This document shows, piece by piece, positions 54,037 through 63,987 of a DNA stretch of 64,000 nucleotides. The first letter of the stretch is position 1. Each line of letters opens with the position of its first letter. Made by a program: the position numbers and the translations under genes. The notes under the pieces are model-generated. The model was not told where the DNA came from. It was given only the letters and a program-made list of their open reading frames with translations, and made no database searches. Origin of the DNA: an uncultured Prevotellaceae bacterium (GTDB taxonomy: Bacteria; Bacteroidota; Bacteroidia; Bacteroidales; Bacteroidaceae); contig CACXMM010000032.1 of the NCBI GenBank assembly GCA_902768785.1, positions 1,017-65,016 of the forward strand. Direction: 5' to 3'.

Positions 54037-54224
54037 CTATCTAATAACACTTTATTACTTCACCTCCTCGAAAACGACTTTAACTGACTATCAATGCGTT
54101 AGCACCGGATGTTGCACACATGTCGCAAAAACGGAAATAACCATTGATAATCATTTGGTTGGGTGTAGAATGCTCAAATGGCAATGAAACGGTAAATGGA
54201 GAAAGAAATGCCACATAACTCTTC

Positions 54225-56540
54225 CTACTCATTTTCTTGGTTAACAGCAGCTTCTTCAGTGGGAATAAAAGGAGCTACTTTGTCCACATTGTCATATTCT
54301 CCTTCATTAGTCAAACGATATTTTATTTTGATGCTGACTATAGGATATTTATTAGGTTTAAAGAATAACTTTGGCCCCCATATTGCAGTAAACAAAGAAT
54401 ACTGATTAACCTTATCGCCAAGCTTAGTCTTTATTGGCTCTTCAAGTAATTCTGGATGCTCAGATATCTTTTCAAGAGACAGCCAAAGGCCATATAAATC
54501 ATTCATCTTCTCCAAACATAACTTCTCCTGTTCTTCTACTGTTGGTTCATAAAAATCCAAGAAAGGTCGGTCTTCAAATCTCATTACATAAACCATCTGA
54601 GAGAAAAATTCTGTACTGCAATCCAATGAAAGAATCTGGATTCCTTTATACGAATACTTATGATCCGTTCCTTTCTTAAGATCTTTTATTGTACCAATAT
54701 AGTAATCAAAATAAAGTCCAAAAGCAATTATATAATGCTGCTCGTTGAGATTTAGTTTATCAATAGCTTGGAACAAATCTTCTGATGACAAGCTATAGTC
54801 CGTTTGACTATGTTCCGCATAGAACGAACTTGCAAACATATGCTGAAAATTGTGTAGCATATAGGATGACACACAACCAGCAATACCAGCATGTCCCACA
54901 TCTGGATTATTCAAAAATGCAGTATTTGGGAAAGGCATTGTCACTGATGAGTTCAAGTTATAGCACTTATCCTGCGAGAATCTTCTTCCTAACAAATCGC
55001 CATATGGCGCCATTGCTCTTATAATATTACCAGTTAACTCATGTTCTTCAGAATCGATTTTCTCTTCGCTTAATGGAAGGGTTGTCCTTAAATGTTCCAT
55101 TTTGGCAAGAATTTCCTTTTGCATACGAGAAGCCAATTGGTCTGGTCGCAATAGATTTGCTTTGTCATAAATCAATGCTTTTTCTTCGATTTCCTTGTCA
55201 AAGGAGGTAAAACGTACGACATTGAGCAAGTCTTTATTATCTTTAATCCGTTCTAACCATCGTTTGAATACATCTAAATTTTCCTTCAATGTGTTGAGTT
55301 CTGACAGAGTGTCTGGTAATGCACCTGTATTTAGTATAGACTCATATCCATAGTTCCAACGTATAACATAAATACGATAAGCCAATAGTGCAAGGTAGCA
55401 ATTTGCGGCACCGACAATTTTGCCTTCTGTAATACCATGCATATTAGGCATTTGGTATCTTGATTCATAATAGAACGGATCAACAAAACTATTATGGTTT
55501 ATTCTATTGAAGGCAGCTATTATATCACTTAAATTTGAAGGCACTAAAGGATAAGATGGGGGTTCTGATTGTGTAAATGAAAGCATAAGTTCCAACAATC
55601 TATATTTCTTCTCTTGGATGAGCATTGAACACAACATGATGTGAAACTCCATGAATTTCTCACGTTGTTTCTGATTTTCTTCAATTTGCTCCTGAGTATA
55701 AGGCTTACCGTCCTCATCATAGATATATTGGTGTATTGGTTTCATAAAAAGACCTATCTTCTGTGATGCCATTTTCCAATACTCCATAATCCACTCATCT
55801 TTGTTATAAAACATTTGTATTCTAAGATTCCTCCATAGATAAATATAGGTGGTTTCAGATACTACAGAATCCAACAAAATAAGGGAGGTCAAAATGGAGT
55901 TTTCATTGTTGACTGATATTGGTTTTGATTCACCTTTACTCAGAAATTCATTAATACGAGAAACACCTTCATAATAATATTGGTCAAATTCCAAAGATTT
56001 ACCCTTGTTGTCCTTGTTTTCTTTGTATGCCCGCGCCGTATATTTAGGTAATTCTCTATATACATCTTGTACAATTTCATCATCTGGAGATTTCCCTAGT
56101 TCCCCCAATAGGTCAACCCATTGAGTAAAATATTTTGCTTCTTTCGCTTTGTCTTTCTTTTCTACGGCCTTATTGTAATCTTCTATTATTTCCTTTTGTA
56201 AGTCATTGATTTTATAGTAAGTGATAATCTTTGAAAAGAGAAGCAAAGCGCACGAAACCAGAACAATAGCACCAATGCATTGCAACCCCATTATAATTCT
56301 TGCATGAGTACACATATCCATAAGGAAAGGGAATAGTACCGCCATAATAAGATTTATCACTAAACATCGCTTAAACCAAATGAATATAGTTTCACCCATA
56401 AATCTTTCAGATAGCTTTGTGGAACCAAACTTATCTTCTATTTTTCCAATGCATCCTATCACTAACGGATAAGACAAACCAAATAGTGTAGATAGGATAG
56501 ATAATACTCCGCTATATGTATAGTTTACAAAATCGAACAT
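54225..56540 (-). CDS. 771-aa membrane-anchored protein of unknown function (three N-terminal TM helices plus a large unassigned domain)
   Basis: Hydrophobic segments are GVLSILSTLFGLSYPLVIGCIG, CLVINLIMAVLFPFLM and IIMGLQCIGAIVLVSCALLLF. The rest is K/E/N/Y-rich and soluble, with no motif I recognise. Its start is 2 nt after the upstream stop. Confidence 0.6.
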   Translation of the reverse strand: MFDFVNYTYSGVLSILSTLFGLSYPLVIGCIGKIEDKFGSTKLSERFMGETIFIWFKRCLVINLIMAVLFPFLMDMCTHARIIMGLQCIGAIVLVSCALLLFSKIITYYKINDLQKEIIEDYNKAVEKKDKAKEAKYFTQWVDLLGELGKSPDDEIVQDVYRELPKYTARAYKENKDNKGKSLEFDQYYYEGVSRINEFLSKGESKPISVNNENSILTSLILLDSVVSETTYIYLWRNLRIQMFYNKDEWIMEYWKMASQKIGLFMKPIHQYIYDEDGKPYTQEQIEENQKQREKFMEFHIMLCSMLIQEKKYRLLELMLSFTQSEPPSYPLVPSNLSDIIAAFNRINHNSFVDPFYYESRYQMPNMHGITEGKIVGAANCYLALLAYRIYVIRWNYGYESILNTGALPDTLSELNTLKENLDVFKRWLERIKDNKDLLNVVRFTSFDKEIEEKALIYDKANLLRPDQLASRMQKEILAKMEHLRTTLPLSEEKIDSEEHELTGNIIRAMAPYGDLLGRRFSQDKCYNLNSSVTMPFPNTAFLNNPDVGHAGIAGCVSSYMLHNFQHMFASSFYAEHSQTDYSLSSEDLFQAIDKLNLNEQHYIIAFGLYFDYYIGTIKDLKKGTDHKYSYKGIQILSLDCSTEFFSQMVYVMRFEDRPFLDFYEPTVEEQEKLCLEKMNDLYGLWLSLEKISEHPELLEEPIKTKLGDKVNQYSLFTAIWGPKLFFKPNKYPIVSIKIKYRLTNEGEYDNVDKVAPFIPTEEAAVNQENE

Positions 56541-56542
56541 AG

Positions 56543-56851
56543 TTACTTTTTGTTATTTTGATATATCTTCTTCTGAAATTTTAGGATCTCATCCGAATTG
56601 TCTCTTATTTTTTGTATCTCCTCTTTTATAATTGAGTTGCTAGATTTGTGGTCTAAGTTCATAGAGTCCAATACTGAAGACTTTCCTAGCAACATATCTT
56701 GCATTTCTACCTGTCTGTGAAATAAACTATCCTTTGACAAATCTGTAGATTTTTTGCTCTGCATCTCTTCATTGAAGGAAATATTATTGAGTATTGCGAA
56801 CCCAATAATGACAACACAAAGTAGTATGATAAAAGTTATAATTTTCTTCAT
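56543..56851 (-). CDS. small single-TM coiled-coil protein of unknown function
   Basis: ATG at 56851 (MKKIITFIILLCVVIIGFAIL). The ORF-track start at 56890 is a TTG. Translationally coupled to the 771-aa gene. Confidence 0.5.
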   Translation of the reverse strand: MKKIITFIILLCVVIIGFAILNNISFNEEMQSKKSTDLSKDSLFHRQVEMQDMLLGKSSVLDSMNLDHKSSNSIIKEEIQKIRDNSDEILKFQKKIYQNNKK

Positions 56852-56960
56852 ATTATTGCTTTTGCGTCTTTTGTAATCTTTCCAAGCCAACTTCCACGCA
56901 TCTTTTGATACTTAATTTTAGGTGACAGTACGGAGCTGTTTGGGGAGATATCCCCTAATA

Positions 56961-57539
56961 CTATTTTTCTTTAGCTAATTGACGTATATCCTCTGCCAAC
57001 ATTTCAATCAATCTATAAATGCCAGTTGATGGATTCTGGAATTCACCCAATTTCTTTGCTCTTGTAACAGCAACATCTGTGTTGCTGTTCAGAAATGCTT
57101 TTTGAGTATCAGTGAAAGCTGACTTGGAATAATTCTTCCACACAGGAGCGCTTTTCTTCAACTCTTTGATGAGTGCATCCGTTTCGATGGCTGCCTTCTG
57201 GTCTTTGGCATGAAGTAGCAACCATATTTCAAAACAAGGATTGCTTAACAGCATTTCAGCCTTGCATTTACGTAGTTTTTCATTGATAGCCTGCACGTCC
57301 ATGTCGTACATGAGGAACGTATGCACCTTGTCCCATTGAGAGATTTTGAGTTCCTTTGTACGCTTCTCAACCAACGATGGCGTGATCTTTGTGCCTTCTA
57401 TGTGCGAAATGATTCTGATGGGTGACTTATACCACGATTTCAGAAGATTGATATAGCAAACCTCTGTCTCGCCCTCGCAAATGACAAGGGCGATCTTTCG
57501 CATTCGCAAAGATGGTGACGGTTCTCTTTTGCTTGCCAT
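56961..57539 (-). CDS. RloB-like (Toprim-type) protein, AbiLii-like
   Basis: IALVICEGETEVCY (RloB CEGExTE signature; Toprim Glu) and FLMYDMD (DxD). Its start is 2 nt after the ATPase stop. Confidence 0.7.
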   Translation of the reverse strand: MASKREPSPSLRMRKIALVICEGETEVCYINLLKSWYKSPIRIISHIEGTKITPSLVEKRTKELKISQWDKVHTFLMYDMDVQAINEKLRKCKAEMLLSNPCFEIWLLLHAKDQKAAIETDALIKELKKSAPVWKNYSKSAFTDTQKAFLNSNTDVAVTRAKKLGEFQNPSTGIYRLIEMLAEDIRQLAKEK

Positions 57540-57541
57540 AA

Positions 57542-58771
57542 TCAGCCTTCCAATAATTGTTTGATACTTGACACCGATGAATCAACATAAGGCACAGCAT
57601 CAAAGCGACCTTGTATATATCCCTTCTCGGCATCCATATTCTCACGGAAATCCTTGAAGTCGTATAATGAATACACCTCCGTTGCACCTTGCTCCGACTT
57701 GTTGACAAAAACAATTTGGTCACGTCTCAGTCGTTTGACATCGATAAGGTTCGTGTTATGGGAAGTAAACAGTAACTGACTACTTTCTGAAGCATGAATC
57801 AAGTCGAGAATGAAATCAGCAAGACGAGTGTGTAATCCCATGTCAAACTCGTCCATCATAATACTCTTCTTGTTCTTTACCACATCCAAGAGTCGTATCA
57901 GAATCTGGAATAGTTTTCTTGTACCATTAGATTCTTCCATGTCCATGTCGAACATAATGTCCTTTTGGTTGCGATGGTACGTCTTGAAGCGAAGCACATC
58001 CACCAGTTTGTATGATAGTTCTGTTTGACCTGGAACAACTACAGGAGCAGGCATTTGCTCTTTCCTTGCCTCGATGTCAGTAATATCTGTATCGCATATT
58101 TCAAGTGCTTTAAGTATCACCTTCTTGTAGGCATTGAAACTATCCAGCACCATCATATCGTTTACGTTCACAAGCCCCAGCAGGAATTGATTCATGAAAT
58201 AACGATATAACTTTTGTGCTATATCACGGTTCATAGAGCTGGCACGACTCAGGAAAAGGTTCTTTTCACTGGTGTTTGTAACCACATCCGAAGGCTTAGC
58301 CATAACGCCTGTACCAAAGCTGTATTTTCCGTCAGCGTCGCGAACAAAGATTTTTGCACGTCTGCCAACTGGGTAATGATATAGACTTTCACTGATGATA
58401 TGATCATGTGTTAATTCAAAAGCATATTCGTATTCCACTCCATCGTACACAAAATCAATCAAGAACTTACTTGATCTATCTTGCCAGCCATCGAATTTGA
58501 AAGGTTCGAAATTGAATATCGCACCTTCATTGTAGAGGTGTGACTCCAAAATCATTCTACAGCAAAAAGTAATGGCTTTCAGAATATTCGATTTGCCAGA
58601 AGCATTAGGCCCAAACAGGCCAATAGTTTTAAGTACGGGCACACCGTTCCACTCCATCACATTATGGCTTAACTCCCGTGCAAGAGCTGTATTGATGTTT
58701 CCTGCTCTGAAGTCGATTCTTATTCTATCTCTAATAGAAAAGAAATTCTCAAATTCGATTTTTAATATCAT
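57542..58771 (-). CDS. ABC-type AAA ATPase (AAA_15/AAA_21-like), AbiLi/AriA-like
   Basis: Start set at MILKIEFENFFSIRD. Walker A is GLFGPNASGKSN, Walker B/D-loop is SIMMDEFDMGLH, and the H-loop region is LFTSHNTNLI. Confidence 0.75.
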   Translation of the reverse strand: MILKIEFENFFSIRDRIRIDFRAGNINTALARELSHNVMEWNGVPVLKTIGLFGPNASGKSNILKAITFCCRMILESHLYNEGAIFNFEPFKFDGWQDRSSKFLIDFVYDGVEYEYAFELTHDHIISESLYHYPVGRRAKIFVRDADGKYSFGTGVMAKPSDVVTNTSEKNLFLSRASSMNRDIAQKLYRYFMNQFLLGLVNVNDMMVLDSFNAYKKVILKALEICDTDITDIEARKEQMPAPVVVPGQTELSYKLVDVLRFKTYHRNQKDIMFDMDMEESNGTRKLFQILIRLLDVVKNKKSIMMDEFDMGLHTRLADFILDLIHASESSQLLFTSHNTNLIDVKRLRRDQIVFVNKSEQGATEVYSLYDFKDFRENMDAEKGYIQGRFDAVPYVDSSVSSIKQLLEG

Positions 58772-59150
58772 TATACGCTTGATTTTGTAGAATTGCTGCA
58801 AAATTAGCGATTTAATTTGAATTCACAAAGCTTTTAGGACTATAAATAGTCTTATTGTTGTCGTTTTTAACATTTATCTACCGAAACAATAGGTCTATAT
58901 GACAAAAATCGCATGCTTGCTATTGCGAATTTATGTAAGAAGAGAAAAAACTCAAACTGGAATTCAACTATGTTTTAACCTCGTTTTTACCACCGCCTCG
59001 CAAAAATCGAACTTAAATCGCAAAATATATGTTTTTCACTTGTTCCCTACTGAATGGATGTTCCCGCGCTCGGCTCTGACGCTTTGCCAAGCAAAGATCG
59101 TTCTTTGCTTCCTTCATGAATGGGGATTGCACCCAAGCTATGTAACAGAT

Positions 59151-59349
59151 AATGGCGGTAATGTTGGCGGTAATGTTGGCGGTAAAAATGGCGGTGTCCC
59201 TAGCTTGTCCCCAGCTGTCCCCAGCTTTGTCACAAGTCTTGTCACAAGTCTTGTCACAAGACGAAGAAAAGGATGCAAGTATTGATGCAAAAGATGCAAC
59301 CTCCAGTTCAAAGGTTGCAACCTTGGATGAAAAGGTTGCAAGTTTGGAG
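59151..59349. repeat. mosaic of five different short tandem repeats in the divergent intergenic region
   Basis: ATGTTGGCGGTA-type 12-mers x4 (59151-59196); GTCCCYAGCT x3 (59196-59228); TTGTCACAAGTC x3 (59227-59262); GATGCAA x3 (59272-59298); AAGGTTGCAA..TTGGA x2, including the 12-bp palindrome AGGTTGCAACCT (59312-59323 and 59333-59344). Confidence 0.9.
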
Positions 59350-59422
59350 CCAAAGGATACAAAAGTGAAGAAAAAGGCAACAGAAAAGATGATTTTCCTT
59401 CGTTATTTCGTGAGAAATTAGC

Positions 59423-59472: not shown

Positions 59473-59670
59473 ATGGAAAATAGAATCAAAGTAGTTCTTG
59501 CGGATAAGAAGAGAACAAACAAGTGGCTATCCGAGCAGTTGGAGTGTGCACCGACTACCGTGAGTAAATGGTGTACCAATGTCAGCCAGCCACCTATGGA
59601 GACATTCGTCAAGATTGCAGAACTCCTCGAAGTCGATATAAACGAACTGTTGAGGATAGAAAAGAAGTGA
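59473..59670 (+). CDS. XRE-family helix-turn-helix transcriptional regulator
   Basis: 65 aa. NKWLSEQLECAPTTVSKWCTNVSQPPMETFVKIAELLEVDINELL is a classic Cro/CI-type HTH_3 pattern. Confidence 0.8.
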   Translation: MENRIKVVLADKKRTNKWLSEQLECAPTTVSKWCTNVSQPPMETFVKIAELLEVDINELLRIEKK

Positions 59671-59872
59671 CCGTCTTAGAAGCTACGTTTTAACTGATAA
59701 CAATCATCCCTGGCAGAGATACAGAACCATAGCAGAGGAGTAGCAATCCGCCGTCGTTCGAAGGTCGTAGCAAGGACGCAGATAGACGTAGGATTTGCGT
59801 TCGATAGTCTCTCTACAGGGTAAGAAGATAGTAAGAAGTAAACAAGAGTATAAAAAACGAAATATAACTCTG

Positions 59873-60174: not shown

Positions 60175-62742
60175 ATGGCAAAACTGACCACCGAAGATTT
60201 CATAAAGAAAGCCCAAGCGGTTCATGGGGATAGATATGACTATTCCAAGGTGGAGTATGTGAATAATCAAACCAAAGTCTGTATAATCTGCAAAAAACAT
60301 GGTGAATTTTGGCAGAGGCCTTTAGATCATTTAAAGGGTCATGAGTGTTCTGATTGTGGTAAAATTAAGAATGTGGCATCTCGCAAAAAAACGTTAGAAC
60401 AGTTTATTGATGAAACGAGGAAAGTACATGGAGATAAGTATGACTATTCTAATGTAAAATATGATAATACGTCAACAAAGGTTTGCATAATCTGCAAAGA
60501 GCATGGTGAGTTTTGGCAGGCCCCATATTCTCATTTGAATGGACACGGATGTCCAAAATGCGCCTATAAAGGTGACAGACAAAGACATATTTATAGTCAA
60601 GAAGAAATAATTGATAAGATTCGCTCTCTTTTTGGTGAACGTTATAGTTTCGAAAAGGTTATATATAAGGCCATGAAGGTTCCCATCATCCTTGTTTGTC
60701 ATGAGAAAGATGAAAATGGCGTTGAGCATGGCGAGTTTTCTATGCGTCCAGTCAATATCTTCTCAAGTCATCAAGAGTGCCCCAAATGTTCCAAAGAGAA
60801 TAGAATTAGGCTCCAGCGAAAACCTCTTGAAAAGTTTATTGAAGAGGCAAATAAGGTTCATGGCGGTTTATATGATTATCACAAAGTCAACTACATAAAC
60901 ACAAGCACTAAAGTATGTATTGTGTGTCCAATTCATGGTGACTTCTGGCAGATTCCAACCAATCATTTGAAAGGTCAAGGCTGCCCATTTTGTTCTGGCA
61001 ATGCGAAAAAATGGAACAAGGAAACTTGCGAGCAAGAAGCACGTAAATATGAGTATATTTTTGATTTTAGGGTTAGAAGTGGCGGCGCATGCAATATGGC
61101 CCAACGTATGGGGTGGCTAAAGGATTATACATGGTTGAGAAAAATGCCGCCTAAAACTGCAGATTACGATAAAGATACAAAATATATCTATGCATATGAG
61201 TTTTTGAAACAAAGAGCTGTATATGTGGGATTGACAAACAGTTTGATAAGAAGAGATTGGCAACATCGTCACAGTAACGACTCTGCCGTTTTTAAATTTG
61301 CCCAAGAATGCAATTGCGACATTCCTTCTCCTAAACAATTAGAAGATAGCATACCAATTCATGAAAGTGGAAAAAGGGAATCTTTTTGGGTGGAATACTA
61401 CAAGGAGCACAATTGGAAGTTACTAAATAGGGCAAAAACTGGCGAGCGGGAAAGTTCTATTGGAGCATCCTTCCCTTTAAAATGGAACAAAAAGGCAATT
61501 AGAGAAAAGGCAAAAGAATGTGGTTATGATCTTTCTCTATTAATGGAACAATATCCAGGTGCTTATGGTGCCATACTAACACGTTACAAAGGGATGCTTA
61601 ACGAGCTTTTCCCCAATAGACTGATCCACACTCATCATACAATTGAAGATGCACTACTTGTAGTAAAGAAAGGACATTACGCAAATCGTAGCCAATTAAG
61701 ATTTGATTGTTTATGGGCATACAGAGTCCTTTTCGAAAATAATATGCTTGACGATGTTTTTGGAAAACCAAAAGGATATACGAGGGAAGAGGCTCTAAGG
61801 GAGGCTGACAATTACAAGTCTATAGAAATAATTAGACTAAAGAACCATACTTTATGGACCTATTTGAAGAATAATAATCTTTTCAACGAATTGAGACCTA
61901 CTATTATTATGCATGGTAGGATTAAGACCGTTGAAGAAGCATGGGATATATCTCAGTACTTCAAAAATATAAAAGAACTAAGTAATTACTCCAAAAAGGC
62001 TTATCATTTATTAAGAGATGCAGGCCTTTTAAGAAAACGTTATCCCAAACCTGTCAAATATGTAGCCAAAAGTGAAAAGGTGGAGAAACCTAAAAAGACA
62101 ATAATTCCAAAAACAGAAGAATCCAAAGAAATAATAGAAGTTGATTTTGAACAATGCAAGAAAGCATATGAGCAATGCGCATTCGTTTCTGAAGTAAAAA
62201 AGCGTTTTGCGCATATCTACAGAATAGCGGTAAAACAAGGCTGGCATGAGGAGTTGAAGGGCTTTTGTTATGGAAGCCCTACAAAGTGGACGCGAGCAGC
62301 TTGTGAGGAGATCGTGAGAAAGTACACATTCCTCAGAGATTTAGTGAATAATGACCCTAACGTGTATAATGTAATAAAAAAGAATCATTGGGATGATTTG
62401 TTGGAATCATTGAAAAGAGTGCAACATGCACCATACCAATACACTATCGAAGAAATAAAGGAGATTTGTGCACCGTATAAAAGCTTATTAGAACTAAGTA
62501 AAGCAAGGAAGGACATTGACAACTATTGTAGGAAAAAAGGTATCGACTTGTATGCATTGAATGGTTGGAAGAATCTCCGCAATCGTAAAGTGTGCCAAAT
62601 CTTTGATGGCGTAGAAATTGCTACATTTTCTTCTATTTCTGAGGCTGCAAGGGCGATAGATGCTCCTCGTAACAGGATGTGGGAACACGTACAAAGTGGA
62701 GAACCTTATAAGGGTTATGTTTGGAAGTATAAAGATCAATGA
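60175..62742 (+). CDS. 855-aa homing-endonuclease-like protein: four zinc-ribbon repeats + GIY-YIG nuclease domain + helical repeats + C-terminal NUMOD/IENR-type DNA-binding motif
   Basis: Four copies of [HG(D/G)xYDYSxVxY..TKVCIxCxxHGEFWQxPxxHLxGxGCPxC]. The GIY-YIG core is YIYAYEF...AVYVGLTNSLIRRDWQH. The C-terminus FSSISEAARAID....GEPYKGYVWKY follows. Confidence 0.65.
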   Translation: MAKLTTEDFIKKAQAVHGDRYDYSKVEYVNNQTKVCIICKKHGEFWQRPLDHLKGHECSDCGKIKNVASRKKTLEQFIDETRKVHGDKYDYSNVKYDNTSTKVCIICKEHGEFWQAPYSHLNGHGCPKCAYKGDRQRHIYSQEEIIDKIRSLFGERYSFEKVIYKAMKVPIILVCHEKDENGVEHGEFSMRPVNIFSSHQECPKCSKENRIRLQRKPLEKFIEEANKVHGGLYDYHKVNYINTSTKVCIVCPIHGDFWQIPTNHLKGQGCPFCSGNAKKWNKETCEQEARKYEYIFDFRVRSGGACNMAQRMGWLKDYTWLRKMPPKTADYDKDTKYIYAYEFLKQRAVYVGLTNSLIRRDWQHRHSNDSAVFKFAQECNCDIPSPKQLEDSIPIHESGKRESFWVEYYKEHNWKLLNRAKTGERESSIGASFPLKWNKKAIREKAKECGYDLSLLMEQYPGAYGAILTRYKGMLNELFPNRLIHTHHTIEDALLVVKKGHYANRSQLRFDCLWAYRVLFENNMLDDVFGKPKGYTREEALREADNYKSIEIIRLKNHTLWTYLKNNNLFNELRPTIIMHGRIKTVEEAWDISQYFKNIKELSNYSKKAYHLLRDAGLLRKRYPKPVKYVAKSEKVEKPKKTIIPKTEESKEIIEVDFEQCKKAYEQCAFVSEVKKRFAHIYRIAVKQGWHEELKGFCYGSPTKWTRAACEEIVRKYTFLRDLVNNDPNVYNVIKKNHWDDLLESLKRVQHAPYQYTIEEIKEICAPYKSLLELSKARKDIDNYCRKKGIDLYALNGWKNLRNRKVCQIFDGVEIATFSSISEAARAIDAPRNRMWEHVQSGEPYKGYVWKYKDQ

Positions 62743-62781: not shown

Positions 62782-63987
62782 ATGCTTAAGATATATTTAG
62801 ATTGGAATAGTATCAATAACATACAGACAAGGCATCCAAAGCTGTATGAACTGATAAAGGAATATGGACATTTGTTCATCTTCTCGTATTCCAATGCACA
62901 TATTCGTGACCTTATGGTTAGTAAGGATGAGAACAATCCATTTTACCAAAGAGATATAGCTACACTTACCGAAATATGCGGAAAACATTTGCTCCAATTT
63001 GAAGATGAAAACAATTGGACAAGTCCTCTTTTCTGCTTGCCTGAAGATTATATTGATTTAATTGGCACTCCTTTAGAAATCATTCAGAAGACAGACTGGT
63101 TCCCACAGCAAATCTTTCAACAGTTTAAAGAAAATGTCAGGAAGAGCTTTCCCGATAGTGTTCAAAAGAGAATACAGGGTGCTAATCCGGAAGAGGTGTT
63201 TGAGATAATCAACAAAGGTCTGAAATCCATTAATTCCCAATTCACGATTGAGGAATTATCCCTCTCACAAGTCAATAGCATTCGTAATATGATGAATGAG
63301 GAGGCAAAATTCAAGTCTTTGTGTCTGGCACTTGATATGTGTGGATTCAGACCCGAAGATAAGGATAAATCGTTTACTAATATTGATGCTGACGCTAGCC
63401 ACATCTTCTATGCGTCAAAATGTGACATATTAGTTTCTGGTGACAGAAAAATGAGAGGAAAGGCAGAAGCAATGTTTTCTAAATACAACGTTGTTACAAA
63501 AGTTCTCACACCAGAAAAATTTGAAGACTTTATTCTTGAAGAAGTAAATAAGGAATATAGCTTACAGAACCTGTTGTCAAGCATTAGACAATATGGACAT
63601 CCACGTGAAGAAGAGGATGGAGCTCACTACAAATTGATGGAATCCCCCGTATTCGGACTGTTCAACGCTTGTTTCTTGGTTGATGAATACTTTGGATGTA
63701 GCGGCGAGCCTAAATCAGCACTGTTTGTCTATTGCTTTAATAACACGCCCTTCCTGTATTATACGGAGCTAACGAGTTTTTTTGATTTGATTAAAAGTTT
63801 CTTGCCAGAAAAGATGAAGAATGTGTTCCAAAAAGAATACGTTGATGAGATATGCAGTCGAGATAAGAGAAGGGCAATGAATGCAAGATTCTATTTTGAG
63901 TTCCCTGATTTAAACTTGTCATTCGCATTTTATGGTGACCCCATCTCACCTGTGCCATGTCCCATGATGCAGGTGAGGTTTGCTTAG
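62782..63987 (+). CDS. hypothetical protein, possible PIN-like nuclease fold in the N-terminal half
   Basis: The N-terminal strand KIYLDWNS and the later block NIDADASHIFYASKCDILVSGDRKM resemble the first and last acidic motifs of PIN-like domains. Otherwise unassigned. Confidence 0.3.
   Translation: MLKIYLDWNSINNIQTRHPKLYELIKEYGHLFIFSYSNAHIRDLMVSKDENNPFYQRDIATLTEICGKHLLQFEDENNWTSPLFCLPEDYIDLIGTPLEIIQKTDWFPQQIFQQFKENVRKSFPDSVQKRIQGANPEEVFEIINKGLKSINSQFTIEELSLSQVNSIRNMMNEEAKFKSLCLALDMCGFRPEDKDKSFTNIDADASHIFYASKCDILVSGDRKMRGKAEAMFSKYNVVTKVLTPEKFEDFILEEVNKEYSLQNLLSSIRQYGHPREEEDGAHYKLMESPVFGLFNACFLVDEYFGCSGEPKSALFVYCFNNTPFLYYTELTSFFDLIKSFLPEKMKNVFQKEYVDEICSRDKRRAMNARFYFEFPDLNLSFAFYGDPISPVPCPMMQVRFA

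Follow-up and report, generated by a model that had tools for sequence, protein, structure and literature searches.

Do four adjacent, co-oriented genes of a bacterial genome form one defence system, or two systems that happen to lie side by side? The question arises from a 64,000-nucleotide stretch of DNA of an uncultured Prevotellaceae bacterium (contig CACXMM010000032.1, assembly GCA_902768785.1; hereafter, the window), in which an ABC-type ATPase and a RloB-family Toprim protein, together corresponding to the abortive-infection system AbiL (AbiLi and AbiLii), are followed by a small protein of 102 amino acids (aa) with one transmembrane (TM) helix and by a 771-aa protein with three (the small and large proteins; together, the membrane pair). 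An earlier note on this DNA had proposed either a four-gene variant of AbiL or a two-gene membrane system stacked next to it. The second alternative was favoured by the separability of the two pairs, the mosaic structure of the DNA and a gene relic at their junction, whereas the first, as an obligate arrangement, was not supported: AbiL accompanied the large protein in only 17 of 55 informative loci. We consider it likely that the locus consists of two independent modules brought side by side by recombination, and that the membrane pair, with its predicted capsid-like domain, acts by itself as a conflict or defence module.

Co-occurrence of AbiL and the membrane pair

A total of 98 loci were collected (cited below by L numbers), and 55 of those seeded with the 771-aa protein had enough upstream DNA for the arrangement to be judged. 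AbiL was located upstream of the membrane pair in 17 of these, all with a large protein at least 78% identical to that of the window, and six of the 17 carried a gene for a 1227-aa protein between AbiLii and the small gene. In 13 loci, the upstream genes encoded instead a Xre-type helix-turn-helix (HTH) protein, an AlbA_2/HATPase_c_4 protein and a two-TM coiled-coil protein of 325 aa (referred to as F6); eight loci contained the small and large genes in other contexts, and in a further 17 the open reading frame (ORF) screen called no small partner. When ten loci of this last type were re-checked more finely, a candidate small partner was found in L015 only. AbiL was missing from all loci in which the large protein was less than 78% identical to that of the window, and from many above this value. 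The association of homologues of the 771-aa protein with the ATPase/RloB pair, which the earlier note had suggested examining, was thus confined to close relatives, and elsewhere the two were not linked.

In the reciprocal test, 15 loci (L075-L089; three AbiLi clusters, 88-91% identity) contained AbiLi and RloB, followed in each case by housekeeping genes or other cargo, and the membrane pair was found in none of them. When the large proteins were arranged in a tree, loci linked to AbiL and loci linked to AlbA_2 were interleaved in the crown clade, with no AbiL on any deeper branch, and the interleaving indicated that the upstream module has been swapped repeatedly. These results did not support an obligate four-gene system of AbiL and the membrane genes, and supported a separate two-gene module stacked on AbiL.

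Junction between the two pairs

The earlier note had described an interval of about 110 nucleotides (nt) between AbiLii and the small gene. Although the size was nearly exact (109 nt), this interval is not a plain spacer, being instead the decayed 3' end of an F6 gene. A nhmmer profile of F6 3' ends gave one significant match in the window (E=1.6e-5; Table 1), the next best having E values of 1.9 and 5.5, and the 109-nt gap aligned with the F6 3' ends together with the equivalent gaps in L018, L025 and L071. By three-frame translation, the relic was interrupted by stop codons, and indels were also present. Pairwise comparisons of the relic were significant against L008 only (z=7) and weak against the others, and the profile search then decided the matter. 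In other genomes, the intact 325-aa F6 gene overlaps the start of the small gene (ATGA).

Pairwise alignments of the DNA showed the same boundaries. L018 and the window shared a single block of 4.77 kb (54159-58913, 91% identity) containing all four genes, homology with L008 and L012 was limited to the membrane pair (54226-56911 and 54224-56871, respectively), and L021 aligned in two blocks (54154-56642 and 57000-58950) with the unrelated 1227-aa gene between them. Taken together, the separability of the pairs, the mosaic DNA and the junction relic indicated that AbiL displaced earlier upstream genes by recombination, and the nature of the junction as a gene relic indicated an accidental juxtaposition of AbiL and the membrane pair. 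AbiL would have taken the place of the AlbA_2/HATPase_c_4 and 325-aa two-TM module found upstream of the pair in related genomes, with the 107-nt relic as the sole remnant of the 325-aa gene, and the pair would now ride on the AbiL transcript, an operon fusion by historical accident.

The same relic might be taken as a sign that the pair in the window is a crippled, non-functional leftover of a larger unit (AlbA_2/HATPase_c_4, 325-aa, small and large proteins), particularly as these four genes follow closely on one another in 13 loci (2-nt gap, 4-nt overlap). We give this explanation little credence: both ORFs are intact and 85-99% identical to their relatives in at least 17 AbiL-linked loci, and small and large genes without either upstream gene are common on the deeper branches, indicating that the pair is viable alone.

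Two other arrangements at this junction were observed. In L008-L012, L032-L037, L068-L070 and L091 (e.g., L012:5110-10304), the AlbA_2-type genes are tightly packed, with 2-nt gaps or 4-nt overlaps; the AlbA_2/HATPase_c_4 protein is approximately 515-534 aa long and is split into two ORFs in some loci, and this set, together with the 325-aa, small and large proteins, may be a fuller form of the membrane system. In L020-L024 and L028 (e.g., L021:4929-8612), the 1227-aa protein between AbiLii and the small gene has no match in Pfam or PADLOC and no TM segment, and its gene is preceded by a relic of the 325-aa gene that is longer and still in frame (L021:4533-4829). Identity to the window protein in these loci is only 40% for the small protein, against 85% for the large one, indicating a recombination breakpoint inside the small gene.

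Promoter and transcription

The sole promoter-like motif for the four genes was a Bacteroidetes-type -7 element, TAATTTTG, approximately 28 nt upstream of the ATG of AbiLi. The surrounding segment of about 140 nt upstream of AbiLi (58774-58913) was conserved in all AbiL loci examined, whether or not the membrane pair was present, and TAATTTTG is a plausible candidate for the promoter of AbiL. Since the motif scan found no promoter motif, and no coding-strand terminator was present, between AbiL and the membrane pair, the latter is now probably co-transcribed with AbiL from the AbiL promoter. A scan for sigma-70 promoters gave a count not above that of shuffled sequence, and was uninformative for Bacteroidetes.

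This probable dependence on one promoter is among the observations that speak against two independent modules. The four genes form one 91%-identical block that adjoins at least five different chromosomal flanks (the window, L018, L025, L026 and L071), they share one orientation, and in L097/98, Septu, another ATPase and nuclease system, is located immediately upstream of the pair. An integrated four-gene system, in which the membrane pair is the effector and AbiLi and AbiLii, as infection sensors, signal to it or act together with it, would be in keeping with all of these, and some functional cooperation of the two pairs may occur in these particular genomes. We nevertheless regard it as very unlikely: AbiL is absent wherever the large protein falls below 78% identity and at many loci above, close AbiL relatives exist without the pair, and the 1227-aa gene splits the two pairs in L020-24 and L028. 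The relic at the junction and the interleaving of AbiL and AlbA_2 arrangements in the tree point in the same direction, and AbiL of Lactococcus functions as a two-gene system. Stacking of two modules by recombination therefore remains our preferred explanation.

The AbiL pair

The ATPase and RloB pair is a standard AbiL system and an ordinary member of a known family. AbiLi matched Pfam AAA_21 (2.1e-26; 94 bits against a curated cut-off of 27) and the AbiLi model of PADLOC (1e-78), and AbiLii matched Pfam RloB (6.4e-26; 92 bits against a cut-off of 31.5) and the PADLOC model of AbiLii (1.2e-22), so that the assignment to AbiL in the earlier note held in profile searches; all of the motifs that it quoted were located (Table 1). 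Secondary PADLOC matches of AbiLi to AriA (2.4e-24), GajA, PtuA and MAD3 were all much weaker than that to AbiLi, and are due to the ABC ATPase fold common to these proteins. Relatives of AbiLi at 87% identity or more formed over 120 clusters, most of them 409 aa long.

As in AbiL of Lactococcus lactis, as modelled in PADLOC, an AAA_21 ATPase is followed by a RloB/Toprim protein after a 2-nt gap, and the two genes are autonomous in many genomes. On the other hand, the host is a member of Bacteroidales, and here and in 16 related loci membrane genes follow on the same strand, probably in one transcript. The locus is thus a recurrent variant in which the AbiL operon has captured two downstream genes, while AbiL itself is ordinary.

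The analogy with other ATPase-Toprim systems drawn by the earlier note has a precedent in the PARIS paper (PMC11464382), in which AbiL is grouped with ABC-ATPase and TOPRIM systems, the OLD classes and PARIS. The window proteins share with PARIS (AriA/AriB), OLD and Gabija the logic of an ABC ATPase combined with a Toprim nuclease, and the ATPase has the AriA match given above; however, the Toprim protein belongs to the RloB family and not to DUF4435 (AriB), and no AriB model matched at E of 0.01 or less. In contrast to OLD and GajA, the ATPase and Toprim domains are encoded by separate ORFs, and matches to GajA and ATPase-Toprim models were weak and confined to the C-terminal part of the ATPase. 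By analogy with PARIS, OLD and Gabija, AbiLi is probably the infection sensor and AbiLii the nuclease effector; within this first module (56961-58950), the ATPase would sense infection and the Toprim protein would cut as a nuclease, the outcome being abortive infection.

Small partner protein

The small protein starts with a basic N-terminus and a TM helix, continues with N..(F/Y)N, (K/R)DS(L/I) and LDS motifs and a coiled coil, and ends in a basic tail; in the window, these include KDSL and LDS motifs and a Lys-rich tail. Partners with the same architecture were encoded directly upstream of large proteins as distant as 33-50% identity, indicating that the pair is old, while the partner has been lost in some lineages (e.g., P. 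endodontalis). Searches of Pfam, NCBIfam and PADLOC with the small protein gave only sub-threshold noise (DUF6675, E 0.009; TrsH, 0.007). A hydropathy scan agreed with the earlier note on one TM helix in the small protein and three at the N-terminus of the large protein.

With its multi-TM protein, whose cytoplasmic part is long and helical, its small partner with one TM helix and its location in defence islands, the pair recalls Zorya (ZorA/ZorB) and Kiwa (KwaA/KwaB). However, the gene order and sizes differ, and no ZorA, ZorB or Kwa profile of PADLOC matched the pair. An acidic TM residue defines stators of the MotB/ZorB/ExbD type, and the idea of a Zorya-like stator was rejected, the TM helix KKIITFIILLCVVIIGFAILNN and the helices of relatives being devoid of Asp and Glu and no Zor profile matching. 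A faint ZorB/MotB-like signal (E=8e-4) was found solely in the 325-aa neighbour gene, which is absent from the window.

Large membrane protein

Homologues of the large protein comprised 270 clusters at 90% identity. The wider family, aligned over its full length, had 703 representatives at 50% clustering, 313 of them with E values of 1e-30 or less; the median of their identities to the large protein of the window was 22%. The latter protein matched no family in Pfam, NCBIfam or PADLOC, and a set of 31 members (the window protein and 30 diverse relatives) matched no Pfam family and no PHROGs capsid family. In the full-length AlphaFold model (me06d3c874e79; mean predicted local distance difference test score (pLDDT) 75.9), the N-terminal helices span residues 4-38, 51-74 and 80-109. 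The positive-inside rule suggests an N-out, C-in topology, by which the soluble part would be cytoplasmic; the K/R-rich loop at residues 33-58 contains D35, K37, Y38 and S40, which are conserved family-wide. The all-alpha middle domain of the full-length model gave only generic helical-repeat matches against PDB by Foldseek (E >0.02).

Aromatic residues, Pro, Gly and Leu make up most of the positions conserved in the family; polar residues are conserved only at D35, K37 and S40 in the first cytoplasmic loop and at R389. An enzymatic effector was therefore rejected, there being no catalytic-looking set among the residues conserved family-wide.

Predicted HK97-like fold of the C-terminal domain

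The earlier note had left the large soluble domain unassigned; structure prediction and Foldseek searches now point to an HK97-like fold for its C-terminal part. Residues 455-771 were modelled alone (m4fbb76be8a42; pLDDT 81.7, predicted template-modelling score (pTM) 0.75), and the best model reached a pLDDT of 85-95 across most of the region. Against PDB, all 50 of the top 50 Foldseek matches of this model were HK97-fold capsid proteins or encapsulins, most with probabilities of 0.9-1.0, 15 with E values of 1e-3 or less, and the best with 1.5e-5. The matched capsids came from unrelated phages (NF5, PhiTE, Douge, HK97 itself, P4, SaPI1, N4 and phiKZ), in addition to encapsulins. With the independent full-length model, ranks 1-9 in BFVD were all HK97-type major capsid proteins, and rank 1 in PDB was a phage capsid with an E value of 0.02, a match that was not usable alone and gained meaning only with the separate domain model. 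The C-terminal domain thus probably has the HK97 (capsid or encapsulin) fold, as judged from these predicted structures.

Several observations count against this assignment. Template-modelling scores (TM-scores) were only moderate (0.26-0.45) with root-mean-square deviations of 5-13 Å, a shallow alignment of 13 sequences (57-88% identity) was used for the domain model, two of the five domain models were of low confidence, and sequence comparisons gave no support for a capsid in Pfam, in PHROGs (31 members) or in a sequence-profile search of PDB, which returned nothing relevant. The match could consequently be an artefact of structure prediction or Foldseek scoring, with the domain being an unrelated alpha/beta fold, which we regard as doubtful although the chance is a real one. 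It is opposed by the uniformity of the top PDB matches, drawn from very different phages and encapsulins, by the agreement of the two models in placing the same class at the top of two libraries (PDB and BFVD), and by the confidence of the best domain model. Moreover, true HK97-fold proteins often share no detectable sequence similarity.

If the HK97-like fold is accepted, the protein is an atypical bearer of it. The predicted C-terminal domain matches only the HK97 class in PDB and BFVD, and a small helical protein is encoded directly upstream, as a scaffolding protein generally precedes a capsid gene. However, the protein shows no sequence similarity to capsid or encapsulin families (no membership of Pfam Phage_capsid, Linocin_M18 or DUF1884 or of PHROGs capsid families among the 31 members), and the domain is only the C-terminal third, accompanied by three TM helices and a helical domain of 400 residues. 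The annotated neighbourhoods contained no portal, protease, terminase or cargo genes, and formation of a closed shell by a membrane-tethered protein is unlikely. TM helices in encapsulins have been reported only for some members of Family 3, within biosynthetic clusters (survey in PMC8346489). A non-exhaustive literature search turned up neither a defence protein with a membrane-anchored HK97 fold nor any account of this gene pair.

Gene neighbourhoods and role of the membrane pair

Members of the family recur beside diverse known defence systems in unrelated genomes, as judged from a listing of neighbours rather than from an enrichment figure. The neighbours included AbiL, BREX BrxABC, Cas9, giant helicases resembling DpdF/GajB and DruE, SIR2, restriction-modification (R-M) systems of types I, II and IIG, RES, HipA and Fic, and PDC-S31. 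Septu was encoded directly upstream of the pair (PtuA 1e-68, PtuB 6e-72). Septu (PtuA/PtuB) and the rlo genes of type I R-M loci thus adjoin family members in the same stacked manner as AbiL, although they have no sequence relation to the membrane pair and bear on context only. In L092 (5235-14091), a member with 26% identity and no small partner lay within a type I R-M operon, flanked by hsdR and hsdM, with a MobA/VirD2 relaxase upstream and a tyrosine recombinase after hsdS; IMG/VR lists this contig as viral. Another member had a type II R-M system on one side and a RES-domain gene on the other, and a member on a Hymenobacter plasmid had integrase, RES and HNH genes nearby.

From the fold and these neighbourhoods, we infer that the pair is an autonomous conflict or defence module. 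The points on the other side are that four independent distant members lie within capsule-synthesis operons, that some members have housekeeping flanks (L006 and L015), that the case for a defence role is one of guilt by association alone, and that the family-wide conservation shows no enzyme signature, leaving the proposed mechanism without a direct anchor. The first of these suggests that the pair may be an envelope or capsule factor, such as a protein that regulates or scaffolds the synthesis or export of polysaccharides, found in defence islands by coincidence through hypervariability. Capsule loci enclose, in the same direction as their own genes, members at 22-50% identity (L090, L093-95 and L096), some of which overlap glycosyltransferase genes, while L097/98 border such loci; three of these members have a small partner, and the P. 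endodontalis member has a NAD-epimerase gene immediately upstream; furthermore, both proteins of the pair are membrane proteins and the conserved residues are not enzyme-like. We consider this explanation unlikely. In most of the sampled contexts, polysaccharide genes are missing and the member is flanked on one side or both by known defence genes, one member lies within the type I R-M operon described above, the capsule loci with the pair also contain PDC-S31/DUF2971, SocA_Panacea, AAA_15/21 ATPases and Septu, and the distribution is patchy and the GC content of the pair low, as in accessory genes.

The Bacteroidales capsule loci L093-L098 were found to hold a putative AbiC, type I R-M genes and, among the AAA_15/21 ATPases, PDC-M62A, as well as 23S_rRNA_IVP and the genes already mentioned. 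Capsule operons may be landing sites for defence genes; capsule loci and defence islands are both hypervariable and phage-facing in Bacteroidales.

A phage-borne role in superinfection exclusion was also considered and rejected. The sole "phage" record with a homologue, L090 (GenBank MT835729.1, deposited as "UNVERIFIED: Bacteriophage sp."), is a bacterial capsule locus: the genes examined encode glycosyltransferases, acyltransferases, a flippase and a thiamine pyrophosphate (TPP) enzyme, and no phage genes were identified among the ten ORFs scanned. In IMG/VR, a relative was found in only two of 2.9 million contigs, one of which is a mobile element with a relaxase, type I R-M genes and an integrase, in which no phage genes were identified.

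The second module (54154-56911) would therefore act as an autonomous and ancient pair of a single-TM coiled-coil protein and the 771-aa protein. Its membrane-tethered, capsid-like cytoplasmic domain would engage components of phage head assembly (capsid, scaffold or portal proteins), and this engagement would either poison assembly or trigger a response at the membrane through the TM helices and the small partner. More specifically, the pair may be an autonomous anti-phage system in which a host-encoded, membrane-tethered HK97-fold mimic of the capsid traps or co-assembles with head proteins or triggers an abortive response, a proposal that we put forward tentatively and do not hold to be the probable one. 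If true, such a mimic would be a prokaryotic counterpart of eukaryotic capsid-derived restriction factors such as the Gag-derived Fv1, and its embedding in capsule and R-M operons would mark the pair as a widespread immunity module of Bacteroidota.

Composition and flanks of the locus

The four ORFs (Table 1) are all on the minus strand and are separated by 2 (AbiLi/AbiLii), 109 (AbiLii/small) and 2 nt (small/large). The GC (guanine plus cytosine) content is 0.34 in the membrane pair and 0.41 in AbiL, versus 0.46 in the left flank and 0.475 in the whole window. Strand, coordinates, spacing and low GC content were thus all as described in the earlier note. The low-GC DNA extends from approximately 54.1 kb to the end of the window, and the left flank carries gltS, an outer-membrane protein gene and a NUDIX gene. 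A Rfam scan of 53-64 kb found no RNA family.

Table 1. Positions in the window of the genes, motifs and predicted domains of the locus
Feature	Position	Strand	Basis
Large membrane protein, 771 aa, uncurated family	54225..56540	minus	ORF; homologue searches
Predicted HK97-like C-terminal alpha/beta domain, residues ~530-745	54306..54953	minus	domain model and Foldseek
All-alpha middle domain of large protein, residues ~110-516	54993..56213	minus	AlphaFold model
Three N-terminal TM helices of large protein, residues ~10-32, 60-76, 82-102	56229..56513	minus	hydropathy
Small partner, 102 aa from ATG	56543..56851	minus	ORF; ends 2 nt before large gene
TM helix of small protein, residues 4-21, KKIITFIILLCVVIIGFAILNN	56789-56842	minus	hydropathy/TM prediction
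Decayed 3' end of the 325-aa two-TM coiled-coil gene (F6)	56849..56955	minus	nhmmer profile, alignment
AbiLii, RloB-family Toprim protein, 192 aa	56961..57539	minus	starts 2 nt past AbiLi stop codon
AbiLii DxD motif YDMD, residues 78-81	57297-57308	minus	motif location
AbiLii Toprim Glu motif CEGETE, residues 21-26	57462-57479	minus	motif location
AbiLi, ABC-type (AAA_21) ATPase, 409 aa from ATG	57542..58771	minus	PADLOC and Pfam profiles
AbiLi H-loop FTSHN, residues 335-339	57755-57769	minus	motif location
AbiLi Walker B and D-loop IMMDEFDMGLH, residues 304-314	57830-57862	minus	motif location
AbiLi Walker A GPNASGKSN, residues 54-62	58586-58612	minus	motif location
Candidate Bacteroidetes-type -7 promoter element TAATTTTG	58799..58806	minus	motif scan; consensus match only

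Upstream of AbiL, a region of 700 nt separates its candidate promoter from a divergent Xre-type HTH gene (59473-59670) and contains four different short tandem repeats in series at 59149-59356 (a 12-mer repeated 2.8 times, a 10-mer 3 times, a 12-mer 2.8 times and a 21-mer 2.3 times), which could be an operator or iteron-like array. The segment 58772-59678 is 94% identical throughout to L071. A shorter segment (59548-59794; 247 nt), consisting of the 3' part of the HTH gene and DNA downstream of it, is 94% identical to L021:19826-20072; in L021-L024, this segment is found on the opposite side of the cassette, separated from the large gene by approximately 8.5 kb with RecQ, NUDIX and PLD-helicase genes, and it could mark the edge of an island or be a repeated element. 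Two plus-strand genes downstream of the HTH gene may be additional cargo of the island: one for an 855-aa protein that contains several repeats of a treble-clef zinc-finger module and matches only DUF4379 in Pfam (60175-62742), and one for a 401-aa protein for which Pfam, PADLOC and NCBIfam scans gave no family (62782-63987).

Biological significance

The locus is a clear, datable example of the building of a defence island, in which a two-gene system displaced the upstream half of another operon. The displacement by AbiL, the 107-nt relic and the probable capture of the pair by the AbiL transcript make tight spacing and shared orientation poor evidence of coupling, and such features should not be counted as evidence that neighbouring genes function together. 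The captured pair belongs to a large, Bacteroidota-wide family without curated annotation, found near many defence systems and in capsule loci, and the importance of the locus lies in its capsid-like membrane protein and not in the link to AbiL. If the HK97 fold is confirmed, this protein would show the capsid fold in an unusual cellular role and would be a candidate for a defence aimed at phage head assembly, with relevance to the phage-host dynamics of gut and oral Bacteroidales.

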